A stretch of 64,000 nucleotides of DNA from Bacillota bacterium (GCA_023394875.1 JAEXAB010000003.1:624602-688601); one strand, 5' to 3'; shown: positions 46,751-60,746, counted from the first letter of the stretch. Notes: generated by a model from the letters alone, not told the origin. Made by a program: numbers and translations.

Positions 46751-47017
46751 GAAGCGCGCGTCCTTGGTAAGACTGACAGCTAAGGGGAAAACGACTCAAA
46801 AACTGCCAAAATGTACTGTGGTCTATGCCACGAAAAACTTAATAAAAATGCACTTGCTGCTATGGCTCAGTCGGTAGAGCGCGTCCTTGGTAAGACTGAC
46901 AGCTAAGGGAAAAACGGCTCAAAAACTGCCAAAATGTACTGTGGTCTAAACCACTAAAAACTTAATAAAAATGCACTTGCTGCTATGGCTCAGTCGGTAG
47001 AGCGCGTCCTTGGTAAG
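46751..47017 (+). repeat. tandem 123-bp repeat (about 2.2 copies), each unit ending in the 5' half of tRNA-Thr
   Basis: The units are 46772-46894 and 46895-47017, with about 6 differences, preceded by a 21-nt partial unit at 46751-46771. Every unit ends ..GCGCGTCCTTGGTAAG. Confidence 0.9.
46856..46894 (+). pseudogene. truncated tRNA-Thr (5' half only, breaks in the anticodon loop)
   Basis: GCTGCTATGGCTCAGTCGGTAGAGCGCGTCCTTGGTAAG is identical to the first 39 nt of the intact gene. It then diverges (ACTGACAGC..). Confidence 0.85.
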
Positions 47018-47054
47018 GACGAGGTCATGGGTTCAAATCCCGTTAGCAGCTCCA
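46979..47054 (+). tRNA. tRNA-Thr (GGT)
   Basis: GCTGCTATGGCTCAGTCGGTAGAGCGCGTCCTTGGTAAGGACGAGGTCATGGGTTCAAATCCCGTTAGCAGCTCCA. The cloverleaf is complete, with anticodon loop TTGGTAA. Confidence 0.92.
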
Positions 47055-47345
47055 AAAAGCACCGAAAACACGAGTTTTTCGGTGTTTTTCTTTGTCTGAA
47101 ACACTTGTGGTGCAAAATGGCATAAAAAAGGCATACAGCTTTTCACCAAAACCTTAGACCACAGTATTTTAGCCATTGCACCATTTTTTTGACCCTATTT
47201 TCAACTTAAGGCATAAAAAAGGCATAAAACTTTTAGTCAACTCATCTCTACCCAATATGTACGCTACTGCTATGTGCTTTGAATATCTTTTGCATCTTTT
47301 AACCGTAAAGGCATAAATAAGGCATAAAAAGAGTGACAAGGTTTT
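47010..47345 (+). repeat. ~337-bp direct repeat, copy A (tRNA-Thr 3' half plus 290 bp)
   Basis: It aligns by eye with 60408-60746, with about a dozen substitutions and one A-run indel. Confidence 0.9.
47060..47089 (+). terminator. tRNA-Thr terminator (also present in repeat copy B at about 60458-60487)
   Basis: CACCGAAAA-CACGAGT-TTTTCGGTG followed by TTTTT. Confidence 0.85.
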
Positions 47346-47384
47346 GGCTTACCCTTCTATGTTATTCTCTCTTTTTGTAATAGA

Positions 47385-47588
47385 TTAATGAATTATTTCG
47401 TAATCAATTTGTATTCCTTTGTTTGCAACAAAATTACTCAATACATTCTTGATTAATGCTTCGGTCAAGTCGCTATCAACGATGTGTATATATAACTCTT
47501 CCTCCGCCCGGCTGCAAGCAACGTAATACATTCTTGTAAATTCCTCTTCCGGCTTTTCATCTAAAATTTGGGGATAAATACAATACAC
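47385..47588 (-). pseudogene. C-terminal remnant of a UvrD/PcrA-superfamily helicase
   Basis: The 67-aa ORF contains EEEFTRMYYVACSRAEEELYIH (helicase motif VI-like R-x-x-YVA-x-SRA). No upstream helicase body is present, and the frame runs into the oppositely oriented methyltransferase gene. Confidence 0.6.
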
Positions 47589-47608
47589 CAGAATTTAGCA
47601 GCAAATTT

Positions 47609-48271
47609 ATGGGGCCTAACGCGCTTAAACTACAAGAAGAAATTCTTTTTAACAGCACTTTGCCAATGGGCGCAACGGTTATGGACTTGGGCAGTGGACA
47701 GGGAGTAACATCCATATATTTGGTCAAAGAACATGGATTCCGTGTTTTTGCCGCCGATTTATGGAGCGACCCCACTGATAATATGCGCTTTTTTCAAAAA
47801 ATGGGGCTAACATCTGAACAAATAATACCCATAAAAGCCGATGCAAATCAATTACCTTTTGCAAAAGATTTTTTTGACGCGGTTATTTGCACAGATTGCT
47901 ACAACTATTTTGGACGGGACAAAGACTACTTAGGAAACAAACTTTTACCCTTTGTAAAAAAAGGCGGTTATATTTATATTTCCGTCCCCGGAATGAAGGT
48001 TGACTGCCACCAAAACTTACCCGAGGTTTTGTTACTATCTTGGACGCCCGAGCAGCTTGATTATATCCACGACATAACCTATTGGAAAAATATCCTTAGC
48101 TGCACCAAAGGCATCGATATTATTTCTATTGAAGAAATGGAAAGTAATGAGGAAGTTTGGGAAGACTGGCTGAAAAGCGACAACGAGTATGCCGTTAACG
48201 ACAGAAAAACTATGCTCGCAGGCGGAGGCAAATACCTTAACTTTATTTCTATAAAAATACAGAAAATATAA
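47609..48271 (+). CDS. class I SAM-dependent methyltransferase
   Basis: 220 aa. Motif I is VMDLGSGQGVTS, followed by the acidic loop FAADL and post-I DAVIC. The unusually short N-terminus suggests possible 5' truncation. Confidence 0.7.
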   Translation: MGPNALKLQEEILFNSTLPMGATVMDLGSGQGVTSIYLVKEHGFRVFAADLWSDPTDNMRFFQKMGLTSEQIIPIKADANQLPFAKDFFDAVICTDCYNYFGRDKDYLGNKLLPFVKKGGYIYISVPGMKVDCHQNLPEVLLLSWTPEQLDYIHDITYWKNILSCTKGIDIISIEEMESNEEVWEDWLKSDNEYAVNDRKTMLAGGGKYLNFISIKIQKI

Positions 48272-58430: not shown

Positions 58431-58563
58431 CTATTTATCCCTCCGTTAACTTAATTATCATTATATAGTATAGGACAAAAAAAATCTAGAATAATTTGCC
58501 ATCTTGACTGCAAACTTGCTATATGCTATTGTAAAAACAATGATAATTATGTGAGGGGGATTT

Positions 58564-59379
58564 ATGATTGAACTACCTGAAGGAATTACGCTTGCTAAGC
58601 AAATAAACGATTGTTTGATTGGCAAAACAGTAAAAAGTGTTTTGCCCCCCACAAAAATTCATAAGTTTTGTTGGTTTAACGGCGACCCGATAGATTATGA
58701 ATCCCGTATAAACGGCAGTACAATAGTAAGCGGAAGCGCGTTTGGGATATTTGTTGAGATAGCCTTTGACAACGGGATGCTTCTATGCTTTGATGACGGA
58801 GTAAATATTAGATATTGTGAGAATGGGGACATTCCTAAGGACTACCAACTGGCAATACATTTTTCCGACGGCTCGGCGGTTGTTTTTACTGTAGCGATGT
58901 ACGGCGGGATTGTTTTGCACGATGGCAATTATGATAATATTTATTATGCAAAAAGTAAAATAGCAATATCGCCTTTTTCTCCTGATTTTGCCAAGTATTA
59001 TTACAAGACAATGGCGGAGAGCAAGCCAACGCTATCGGCTAAGGCTTTTTTGGCAACAGAGCAAAGGTTTCCTGGGATAGGCAACGGCGTTTTGCAAGAT
59101 ATACTCTATACCGCGGGAACTAACCCAAAAACAAAAATAAGCACCCTTAGTGACAAGGATAAAACGCTTTTGCTAAATTCCATTGTGTCTGTTTTGCAAG
59201 AAATGACTGATAAGGGTGGCAGAGATACCGAAAAAGACGTGTTTGGCAACAGCGGAAATTACATAACCAAGCTGTCTAAGCTGACAGCCCATAGTTGTTG
59301 CCGTGTTTGTGGCGGAGGTATTGTTAAAGAAGCTTACCTTGGCGGCGCAGTATATTACTGCCCCGTTTGCCAAAAATAG
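58564..59379 (+). CDS. Fpg/Nei-family DNA glycosylase-like protein lacking the N-terminal Pro
   Basis: 271 aa. It starts MIELPEG where the family has MPELPEV. An H2TH-like block FPGIGNGVLQDILYTAG and a C-terminal zinc finger CRVCGG..YYCPVCQ are present. Confidence 0.7.
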   Translation: MIELPEGITLAKQINDCLIGKTVKSVLPPTKIHKFCWFNGDPIDYESRINGSTIVSGSAFGIFVEIAFDNGMLLCFDDGVNIRYCENGDIPKDYQLAIHFSDGSAVVFTVAMYGGIVLHDGNYDNIYYAKSKIAISPFSPDFAKYYYKTMAESKPTLSAKAFLATEQRFPGIGNGVLQDILYTAGTNPKTKISTLSDKDKTLLLNSIVSVLQEMTDKGGRDTEKDVFGNSGNYITKLSKLTAHSCCRVCGGGIVKEAYLGGAVYYCPVCQK

Positions 59380-59545
59380 CGCAAATTACTTTTGTTATCA
59401 ACATCCCTACCGTATATTTCGGTGGGGTTGTTTGTTCTTAATCTGACTTTTATCTAATAGAAATATCTACTAAGAACATCTCTTTGTCATGGCTACATAT
59501 TATGGATTGAACAACCTATTTTTTTTAGCACAAGGAGACTTACAA

Positions 59546-60163
59546 ATGGCAATAATTGACCAATATAATCTGAAAGCCAGTACGCCTTTCCCTATATCAG
59601 GCACAGAAGAAATAACTAAGGATTTGGCACTAAGCGCAAGCATAGCTAGTGCCGCGGGCGTAGTAACAGGCATCGTCACTTCGGGCGGCTCGCCCATACA
59701 GGGCGCAACGGTAAAGCTTTATGATGTCAATGACAATCCGATTGCGCACGATATTGCCAACCCTCAAGGCAGGCATACTCTCGCAGGTATTCCCCCAGGC
59801 CCCTACAAAATCACAGTTTCAATGCCAGGGTACCTTACTCCCATACCAATCCCATTAACCGTTGCTCCCACCCGTCCGACAACTGTCAATATTGCGCTAA
59901 CAGTCGACCCCGATGCCAATAAAAGCGCTTTGTTCGGTATTATTAGTCAGGCAATAGTCTTGACTCCTCTAGAAAGCGCCCTAGTCAATATTTATGAGGA
60001 TGTGGGCGGAGAGCAAACACTGGTTTTAACCACCTTTACAAACAGTAGCGGACAATATTTTGCTCCAAGGCTAACTTCTGGAGATTATGTCGTCGTTGCA
60101 AACAAATTAGGTTATGAGCAAAACACAAGCGCTATTGTTACATTTCAAGGTGAACAGTGTTAG
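59546..60163 (+). CDS. protein with two carboxypeptidase-regulatory-like (CarboxypepD_reg) beta-sandwich domains
   Basis: ORF 59489..60163. The ATG at 59546 is preceded by GGAGA. G.V....G.PI.GATVKLYD...N.....ANPQGRHTLAGIPPGPYKITVSMPGY and a second ..SGQYFAPRLTSGDYVVVANKLGY unit are present. Confidence 0.55.
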   Translation: MAIIDQYNLKASTPFPISGTEEITKDLALSASIASAAGVVTGIVTSGGSPIQGATVKLYDVNDNPIAHDIANPQGRHTLAGIPPGPYKITVSMPGYLTPIPIPLTVAPTRPTTVNIALTVDPDANKSALFGIISQAIVLTPLESALVNIYEDVGGEQTLVLTTFTNSSGQYFAPRLTSGDYVVVANKLGYEQNTSAIVTFQGEQC

Positions 60164-60407
60164 GGAACATATCAAATTAAGCTTGAATCTTTTATGTTAT
60201 TAAATATCAAATAATCGTATGTATGGAGCAAATATGAAAGAGGCATAAAACTTTTGGCATAAAAAAAGGCATAAAATATCATTAAAAGTTAGAAAAGATG
60301 TGAAAGCTATGTAAGATATTTTAAGAAATACGAGATAAATCGCCCGAAAAGTGCAAGAAATGTCTATTTTTGTGAGTTTTGAAAGATATTTTAACGGTAG
60401 AGAGGCT

Positions 60408-60746
60408 TTGGTAAGGACGAGGTCATGGGTTCAAATCCCGTTAGCAGCTCCAAAAAGCACCGAAAACACGAGTTTTTCGGTGTTTTTCTTTGTCTGAAAC
60501 ACTAGTGGTGCAAAATGGCATAAAAAAGGCATACAGCTTTTCTCCTAAACCTTAGACCACAGTATTTTAGCAATTGCACCATTTTTTTGACCCTATTTTG
60601 AACTTAATGCATAAAAAAGGCATAAAACTTTTAGTCAACTCATCTCTACCCAATATGGACACTACTGCTATGTGCTTTGAATATCTTTTGTATCTTTTAA
60701 CTGTAAAGGCATAAATAAGGCATAAAAAAAAGAGTGGCAAGGTTTT
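60408..60746 (+). repeat. ~337-bp direct repeat, copy B (orphan tRNA-Thr 3' half plus 290 bp)
   Basis: It starts TTGGTAAGGACGAGGTCATGGGTTCAAATCCCGTTAGCAGCTCCA. No matching acceptor or D-arm lies upstream except CGGTAGAG at 60395-60402. Confidence 0.9.

Follow-up and report, generated by a model that had tools for sequence, protein, structure and literature searches.

What kind of insertion leaves one intact tRNA gene with an orphan 3' half far downstream and a stack of orphan 5' halves directly upstream? The question is raised by the tRNA-Thr(GGT) locus in a 64,000-nt stretch of a Bacillota bacterium genome (GCA_023394875.1, JAEXAB010000003.1:624602-688601), hereafter the window, with all positions counted from its first nucleotide. 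We consider it probable that this locus arose by serial site-specific insertions into the anticodon loop of tRNA-Thr(GGT) by elements that replace the resident tRNA with one of their own. There would have been at least two such events, probably three. Two of the elements are visible in the window: a 13,521-bp island, denoted E2 (46895-60415), and an older one, E1, represented by a prophage remnant.

Architecture of the tRNA-Thr(GGT) locus

ARAGORN makes a single tRNA-Thr(GGT) call in the 64-kb window, and this intact gene contains one of two direct repeats, A and B, that are spaced by 13,398 nt (Table 1). The copies differ by 11 substitutions and one 3-nt indel in a run of A, with an identity of about 96% in the MAFFT alignment. 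Both start at TTGGTAAGGACGAGG, which comprises the anticodon loop and the 3' strand of the anticodon stem, span the T arm, the encoded CCA and the terminator hairpin, and continue for about 290 bp, denoted the arm. Copy A lies within the intact gene; copy B, on the same strand and in direct orientation 13.4 kb downstream of the intact tDNA, is an orphan 3' half without a 5' half. This much had been described in an earlier note made from the sequence alone, and the repeat finder, MAFFT and ARAGORN all agree with it. No third copy of the arm was detected in the window, and BLAST comparison of the arm and the attP-like region with phage and plasmid collections produced nothing, or short tRNA matches only; thus, the arm is not a dispersed repeat family, a possibility that the note had itself raised. 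The Rfam search of the att region returned the tRNA and no other family, and the small open reading frames (ORFs) in the arms are not conserved.

What the earlier note overlooked are the orphan tRNA 5' halves stacked directly upstream of the intact gene, at 46660-46894. The clearest part of the stack consists of two tandem 123-nt units (46772-46894 and 46895-47017), each made of an 84-nt spacer (X1 and X2, respectively) and a 39-nt tRNA 5' half that ends in TTGGTAAG, hereafter the core. The 5' half in the second unit is part of the intact gene and is identical to the one in the first unit, the orphan half h1, and the spacers differ at 5 of the 84 positions (94% identity). Altogether, the window contains four breakpoints at TTGGTAAG, of which three have a tRNA 5' half on the left and two have a 3' half on the right.

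Upstream of the tandem units lies an older and more degenerate layer, with a 17-nt tRNA 5' start that has a different acceptor strand (GCTGTTG), about 57 nt that hold the hairpin TTGCCAGTGGCAA, and a degenerate 5' half that again ends in the core. The 5'-end break in the 46660-46733 part of this layer falls in the D arm and not in the anticodon loop; this segment may stem from an insertion within an orphan half, or it may be a scar left by an element that crosses over at a different point. The entire stack is preceded by a perfect sigma-70-type promoter, that of the original resident tRNA-Thr gene, which now lies about 335 nt upstream of the sole intact copy.

A model of serial tRNA replacement

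Under the model that we favor, the attachment region of an element would consist, in this order, of a P arm of about 165 bp with three copies of the motif GGCATAAA, the core TTGGTAA, the 84-nt spacer X, a whole tRNA-Thr(GGT) gene with its terminator, and the ~290-bp arm with five copies of GGCATAAA. Element and target would share the core only (TTGGTAA(G), 7-8 bp), so that the resident tRNA would not be rebuilt. Insertion would orphan the resident 5' half on the left (5' half-core-X) and move the resident 3' half, with the DNA behind it, to the far right end (P-core-3' half), while the element's own tRNA, located 84 nt inside the left junction, would take over. The carried tRNA would presumably complement an essential function that would otherwise be lost, and would also become the target of the next arrival, newer elements nesting inside the tRNA of older ones.

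The junctions in the window are located at 46771/46772 and 46894/46895 (attL) and at 60415/60416 (attR). Read with the model, E1 would have arrived first and E2 would then have inserted into the tRNA of E1. The older element would comprise X1 and h1 (46772-46894) together with everything to the right from 60416, X1 being presumably the start of its P' side and h1 the 5' half of its own tRNA, split at the insertion of E2. X2 is the first bases of E2. Copy A would contain the 3' half and arm that belong to the tRNA of E2, and copy B those that belong to the tRNA of E1; the oldest layer would record a still earlier event, with its right end beyond the window. The predicted attP of E2 reads ...GAGAGGCTTTGGTAAGACTGACAGCTAAGG....

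Two observations tie copy B to an earlier element. Both h1 and the 3' half in copy B are of the element type (GCTGCTA/TAGCAGC), which indicates that the tRNA split by E2 was itself element-borne, and this origin explains why copy B is trailed by an arm 96% identical to arm A. Furthermore, the 94% identity of X1 and X2 and the 95-96% identity of arms A and B point to two related elements rather than a recent duplication.

The reading of the earlier note changes accordingly in some parts and stands in others. Tandem accretion holds, with two related elements that possess a homologous arm. Its attL/attR interpretation stands with respect to insertion in the anticodon loop and fails with respect to the classical fusion with a 3' fragment, since X, the intact tRNA and the arm move as one block. 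The left boundary of the island had been placed at 47010; the 5' orphans ending in TTGGTAAG move it to 46894/46895. Finally, the repeat had been regarded as an att core about ten times too long; the identity with the target is only 7-8 bp, and the 337 bp reflect internal homology between two generations of elements.

Two variants of the model were considered and rejected: a mirror arrangement, with the element carrying a 5' half at its far end, would shrink the "element" to 84 nt, and a whole-tRNA attP, with crossover between two complete tRNA genes, would leave no orphans.

The recombining enzyme would be a tyrosine integrase, judging by the 7-bp overlap on the anticodon loop, the symmetry of the target stem and the paired, directly repeated motifs that flank the core. 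A scan of all frames of the window for tyrosine-recombinase box II and serine-recombinase motifs was negative.

The attachment block in related loci

Contigs with related loci were collected from a metagenome scan with the tRNA 3' end and from proteins that share at least 90% identity with the AMP-binding enzyme flanking the locus in the window. The block consisting of X, a complete tRNA-Thr, the terminator and the ~290-bp arm recurs in four of these loci (L086, L094, L109 and L112), and the arm only is found in a fifth, L092. Alignment of the blocks shows that the left edge of the shared X-tRNA-arm module is always the anticodon loop. The junction TTGGTAAG/ACTGACAGCTAAGG is identical in L086/L113, L094 and L112, whereas the one in L109 reads TTGGTAAT/ACTGACAG, which narrows the common core to TTGGTAA, 7 bp.

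The most telling of these loci is L094. Its flank is GC-rich and unrelated to that of the window, and it contains a 5' half, a 55-nt spacer, another 5' half, an X that is 100% identical to X2, an identical tRNA and the start of the arm. Classical integration does not fit an X conserved at 100%, with an identical tRNA and arm start, behind an unrelated flank and with homology that begins at the loop, given that sequence upstream of the loop would then belong to the host and differ wherever the flanks are unrelated. In L112, where the flank is the same as that of L086, a different X variant is followed by a variant tRNA-Thr(GGT), the arm and an intact Gabija system (GajB, 5.8e-93; GajA, 4.3e-49). 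The tRNA of this locus differs coherently in both halves (anticodon stem CTACC/GGTAG), indicating that the whole tRNA arrived with the element. Because in L112 the arm is followed by gajB and gajA and the remnant in the window is the same GajB C-terminus, arm A and E2 are tied to an element of the X type. A search with GajB homologues for longer contigs of the L112 element reached a next relative with 64% identity.

The remaining loci add to the variety of stacks. In L086/L113, with a flank related to that of the window, the old layer is followed by a single X and the tRNA. L109, from a metagenome-assembled genome (GCA_009928815.1) with a flank about 81% identical, has the promoter, an intact 5' half of the GCTGTTG type, an X variant, the tRNA and the arm, followed by unrelated genes. 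L107 (1-240), also with a related flank, contains a stack in which spacers of 38 nt and 29 nt separate the core TTGGTAAG from the 5' half that follows, and such different spacers imply that several element lineages use one core. L092, with a type I restriction-modification (R-M) occupant, encodes HsdM and an XRE regulator; these genes are followed by a P arm (88% identical to that of E2), the core, an orphan 3' half, the arm and ATP-binding cassette (ABC)-transporter genes. In L086, L107, L109 and L112, the stack likewise has a homologous promoter ahead of it, and a counterpart of the oldest layer is present in L086/L112, L107 and L111 and missing from L109.

Two related strains, represented by L110 and L111, contain a ~6-kb polyamine-synthesis operon between the AMP-binding gene and the tRNA-Thr promoter, which encodes decarboxylases, spermidine synthase, agmatinase and a saccharopine-dehydrogenase-like protein; the window lacks this operon (46459/46609). 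In another species, represented by two contigs from one metagenome sample (L091, 1183-1349; L095, 10203-10369), tRNA-Thr(GGT) is followed after 53 nt by an orphan 3' half that starts from TAAGGACGAGG, a minimal scar at the identical loop position. L093 (11840-12060) contains an orphan tRNA-Thr 3' half with CAC(A/G)ATATATAGTG motifs on both sides, a different candidate family of arm sites; its neighbors are a two-component system and, on the opposite side, the gene for a giant protein of 3166 aa, a cargo that resembles the flavor of E2.

Motifs flanking the core

The window contains 16 copies of the motif GGCATAAA, compared with an expectation of 4.4, and 12 of the 16, all on the + strand, fall within arm A (five, starting at 47119, 47210, 47221, 47310 and 47321), arm B (four, with one further motif mutated) and the P arm (three). 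The latter three, which the earlier note overlooked, start at 60242, 60256 and 60268, within a 35-nt stretch 130 nt to the left of copy B, and the homology between the P arms of the window and L092 begins at these motifs. The rest of the P arm leads to CGGTAGAGAGGCT, which partly mimics the D and anticodon stems; the P-arm sequence ahead of copy B agrees with the tRNA at CGGTAGAG and the core and nowhere else. Thus placed on both sides of the core, paired and in a single orientation, the GGCATAAA motifs are candidate arm-type sites of the integrase. The GGCATAAA-pair pattern yielded a single chance match in IMG/VR (L106).

Two other sequence properties of this region were observed. Within the arm, a stretch of about 140-190 nt (47150-47292 and 60548-60690; ACCTTAGACCACAGT...GAATATCTTTTGTA) is ~90% conserved across the loci, compared with host flanks that are ~81% identical or unrelated. 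In addition, TACTGTGGTCTAA, located in X at 46937-46949, has inverted copies in the arms, at 47154-47166 and 60552-60564, which bracket the tRNA.

Alternative explanations

A mixed history would make E2 a classical element, with an attP of the form P-core-3' half-arm, that fused to the resident 5' half, the X layers then deriving from older tRNA-carrying elements, so that at least three elements would lie to the right. Copy B with its left flank and L092 each display P-core-3' half-arm intact, as in a classical attP, and the identity of all tRNA halves in the window makes a hybrid gene indistinguishable from a whole one. This history nevertheless demands one extra event and two attP architectures with one arm, and in L112 the same arm and gajB follow a coherent tRNA preceded by X, which makes the left end of E2 that of a tRNA-carrying type; furthermore, pattern searches of IMG/VR found no free classical attP. 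We therefore regard the mixed history as unlikely. Another alternative would be the absence of any site-specific recombination, with the 337-bp repeat arising by segmental duplication, the 123-nt units by slippage, and the islands by homologous exchange through tRNA and arm anchors. The lack of a recombinase in any of the five loci, the length and ~90% conservation of the blocks, and the plausibility of stack collapse suggested by L109 versus L107 would all agree with it. The breakpoints, however, all fall at the same 7-8 bp of the anticodon loop in at least six independent junctions with four spacers (84, 55, 38 and 29 nt), the divergence of the tandem units (4%) and of the long repeats (4-5%) shows that they are not recent duplications, and the X-tRNA-arm block stands behind an unrelated flank in L094, all of which renders this explanation highly improbable.

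A separate question is whether the arm and its GGCATAAA motifs are integrase sites at all, or instead a regulatory or replication region (iterons, an operator) or a small RNA that has escaped annotation. The distance from the motifs to the core is large, the ~190-nt arm block is more conserved than the host flanks, and a 13-nt inverted repeat brackets the tRNA; yet the motifs occur on both sides of the core, paired and in one orientation, like arm-type sites, and neither an Rfam match nor a conserved ORF was found. Such a role for the arm appears rather unlikely, and it would bear on the function of the arm only, not on the integration model.

Several points weigh against serial tRNA replacement. 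Pfam analysis of all large ORFs detected no recombinase, integrase or excisionase in the window, and none adjoins the att block in L092, L109 or L112. No contig was found with an empty site or a free attP (P-core-X). The nearest GTDB representatives, with ~68% amino acid identity in the AMP-binding gene, have no tRNA-Thr beside it, searches of IMG/VR with patterns drawn from the tRNA 3' half, from the core-X junction and from the P arm gave no matches, and no strain of the window's species lacking E2 was found. In a 1.12-Mb contig from the same strain set, the left-flank, E2 and E1 proteins are identical to those of the window; this contig probably has the window's arrangement and offers no case of presence/absence polymorphism. 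Looking up the exact protein sequences encoded in the flank and the island returned short Logan contigs (L001-L004), broken at the repeats, and polymorphism is seen between related lineages only, namely, L086 versus L112, L109 and the window. Neither E1 nor the oldest layer has its right end within the window. The number of layers may differ from the number of events, given that repeated halves can recombine and collapse the stack, and the P-core-3' half-arm of L092 can be read as a classical attP instead of an attR. The distal GGCATAAA motifs are separated from the core by 225-430 bp, a greater distance than that in classical attP sites. Lastly, an element with a perfect target of its own 84 bp from its core might be expected to recombine with itself.

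A broader interpretation of the serial insertions is offered tentatively, and we rate it as rather doubtful: a self-contained att-tRNA cassette of ~630 bp, made up of P arm, 7-bp core, spacer, whole tRNA-Thr and arm, would define a family of islands in gut Clostridia, mostly without integrases, that are moved in trans by a helper integrase, each arrival killing the resident tRNA-Thr(GGT) and installing its own to form nested, self-stabilizing stacks. If so, the newest island would be indispensable unless precisely excised and would offer a fresh target to the next, and the stacks would carry defense and surface-protein cargo; self-recombination may be prevented by the very shortness of the 84 bp between core and carried target.

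Island E2 and the prophage remnant E1

E2 retains both junctions, the P arm and the arm; its genes consist of cargo (47609-60163) and a gajB stump (Table 1). The ORF at 47385-47588 covers only the last 62 codons of the intact gajB gene of L112, and E2 is a decayed relative of a Gabija-carrying island. A Gabija system comprises intact GajA (an ATPase-TOPRIM protein) and GajB, of which only the last 62-67 gajB codons are left in the window. The Pfam and PHROGs annotations agree with the gene content listed in the earlier note, including the absence of an integrase or excisionase between the repeats (Pfam and motif scan), with the qualification that the TfoX_N and Fpg matches are below the gathering scores. 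GC content does not set the island apart.

The 2076-aa protein encoded in E2 has a C-terminus (48348-48560, - strand) with a match to Ribosomal_L27A (4.5e-11, residues 2004-2073), the C-terminal part of ribosomal protein uL15, with the sequence ...KILARGRLDKALTVEANDFSMEAVKMILLTGGKVIKAI. A uL15-like end on a secreted protein is an odd fusion that is missing from the other giant protein in the window and from that in L093. The gene also contains a 212-nt direct repeat (50224-50435 and 51382-51593, 78% identity) that reflects repeated domains. In PADLOC, the methyltransferase (47609-48271) weakly resembles mad2 from the candidate MADS defense system (3.7e-11), over the methyltransferase domain only, and this match probably represents just the common fold that binds S-adenosylmethionine (SAM).

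Copy B adjoins a prophage remnant, as the earlier note had found, with a truncated tape-measure gene next to it. The intact relatives of this tape-measure protein are 525-542 aa long and are followed by Dit. E1 is a siphophage that is now truncated. Its 392-aa protein had no match in the phage collection or IMG/VR and belongs with two homologous clusters only; the contigs of these clusters (L097-L105 and L114-L118) contain tail modules or other remnants, with no att site and no integrase. The 185-aa phage gene was found in remnants from other samples (L101, 6598-9842; L099, 969-2144), one of which lies beside a GH127 glycosidase gene and a pair encoding a UvrD-like helicase and DUF2290, and another is broken by an IS110 transposase gene; the prophage family of this gene is widely decayed.

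Elsewhere in the window, a tRNA cluster (Met, Met, Glu, Val; 3804-4132) adjoins an RmuC gene and a second giant ORF (region 4408-11665). This ORF (2016 aa, 5615-11665, - strand) contains no Pfam domain at E <= 1e-5.

Table 1. Coordinates of the tRNA-Thr(GGT) locus, island E2 and prophage remnant E1 in the window
Feature	Position	Strand	Description
Sigma-70-type promoter	46616-46644	+	TTGACA-17-TATAAT, 12/12 match
Oldest layer	46660-46771	+	17-nt tRNA-Thr 5' start GCTGTTGTAGCTCAGCG, ~57 nt, degenerate 5' half (46734-46771) with core TTGGTAAG at 46764-46771
Spacer X1	46772-46855	+	84 nt; 5 substitutions relative to X2
Orphan 5' half h1	46856-46894	+	0 mismatches to the 5' half of the intact tRNA; acceptor GCTGCTA; core TTGGTAAG at 46887-46894
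Island E2	46895-60415		13,521 bp
Spacer X2	46895-46978	+	84 nt; holds TACTGTGGTCTAA; 100% identical to X in L086 and L094
Intact tRNA-Thr(GGT)	46979-47054	+	ARAGORN; Rfam tRNA, 71.8 bits; core TTGGTAAG at 47010-47017
Repeat copy A	47010-47345	+	tRNA 3' half, terminator hairpin (47055-47089), arm A; repeat finder, alignment
GajB remnant (Gabija UvrD-like helicase)	47385-47588	-	100% match to the last 62 residues of L112 GajB
SAM methyltransferase	47609-48271	+	Pfam/PHROGs
Flg_new/MBG surface protein	48348-54578	-	2076 aa; Pfam/PHROGs
Small ORF beside surface protein	54582-54782	-	ORF
GHKL histidine kinase	54994-56280	-	Pfam/PHROGs
LytTR response regulator	56281-57012	-	Pfam/PHROGs
316-aa protein	57092-58042	-	ORF
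TfoX_N, weak	58101-58430	-	28.0 bits, below the Pfam gathering score of 30.1
Fpg/H2TH, weak	58564-59379	+	31.4 bits, below the Pfam gathering score of 34.7
CarboxypepD_reg protein	59489-60163	+	Pfam/PHROGs
P arm of E2	60241-60407	+	Three GGCATAAA, then ~130 nt ending in CGGTAGAGAGGCT; 88% identical to the L092 stretch
Repeat copy B	60408-60746	+	Core TTGGTAAG (60408-60415), orphan 3' half (acceptor TAGCAGC), terminator, arm B; repeat finder, alignment
Prophage remnant, body of E1	60766-63827	-	Tape-measure fragment; 185-aa, 392-aa, Neck1-like/tail-completion (136 aa) and 78-aa proteins
Tape-measure protein, N-terminal fragment	60766-61317	-	Homology to intact relatives from 60842 on

Comparison with known systems

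Classes of sublocation within tRNA genes were reportedly defined by Williams in 2002. The locus resembles Islander-type islands in the crossover at the anticodon loop and in the combination of an intact tDNA with a displaced 3' fragment in direct orientation (PMC4383910). Tandem arrays are well represented among these, with 125 arrays of at least two islands and four of at least three; each Islander island is, however, required to have an integrase, and none is found here (PMC4383910). In classical islands, the tDNA fragment of attP abuts the crossover, so that integration restores a hybrid gene and displaces fragments of one kind only, whereas here neither an attP fragment at the crossover nor an internal integrase is present; the core is followed by a spacer and then by an entire tRNA gene, and orphans of both the 5' and the 3' type result.

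Accretion of cis-mobilizable elements (CIMEs) in the ICESt1/ICESt3 family is said to have been described by Pavlovic in 2004 and Bellanger in 2011. Like these CIMEs, E2 is bounded by att sites, has no recombination or transfer module and stands in tandem with a related element (PMC5704250, PMC5812530). The ICESt1/ICESt3 elements differ in residing at the 3' end of fda and accreting side by side, whereas E2 is nested in a carried tRNA; a functional partner element is not seen here either, the visible E1 being a truncated tail module. The Dehalococcoides islands at the transfer-messenger RNA (tmRNA) gene share repeated insertion at a small-RNA gene, direct-repeat arrays and variable cargo, but regenerate ssrA with a 3' fragment and possess integrases (PMC3146451). 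Tandem arrays at tRNA and tmRNA genes and integrase-less tandem remnants are thus well known (PMC4383910, PMC3146451, PMC5704250, PMC5812530).

The closest counterpart is the tRNA-dependent lysogeny of actinobacteriophages Fionnbharth, LeBron, Gaia and others, for which it was demonstrated experimentally that the core is 8-17 bp long, the tRNA is not rebuilt, a cognate phage-borne tRNA is needed for viable lysogens, and arm-type sites are paired (Guerrero-Bustamante and Hatfull, mBio 2024, PMC10865867). The window has the same traits, namely, a short core (7-8 bp), no rebuilding at either junction, a carried tRNA and paired putative arm-type sites; an integrase of the element was found neither in the window nor in the related loci, and the mechanism is read here from sequence. 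The host and target also differ, being gut Clostridia and tRNA-Thr(GGT), and the occupants include non-phage islands, with Gabija in L112 and type I R-M in L092. The tRNA of Fionnbharth is encoded at a separate locus overlapping gene 37, whereas here it is part of the attachment region itself, at a distance of 84 nt from the core, keeps the target and was itself hit, giving rise to nested 5' orphans. The same paper notes a possible Firmicute case, Lactobacillus johnsonii prophage Lj965, and expects the phenomenon elsewhere; as cited there, the tRNA of Lj965 is reportedly not rebuilt and a cognate tRNA is carried, and the parts of that paper that concern Lj965 report no stacking or tRNA embedded in the att site (PMC10865867).

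If the model is correct, tRNA-replacing integration, experimentally shown in actinobacteriophages only, would extend to gut Firmicutes and to non-phage defense islands, and the sole functional tRNA-Thr(GGT) seen in the window is probably foreign DNA. A carried tRNA that keeps the target would permit repeated nesting, with the stack of 5' orphans forming a readable record of insertions. Island finders that rely on a 3' fragment together with an integrase would set the left boundary ~120 bp off, reject such islands because no integrase is present and overlook the 5' orphans. The locus stands apart from these systems by a carried tRNA that is located within the attachment region and reused as a target, in Clostridia, with defense-island cargo and with no visible integrase.

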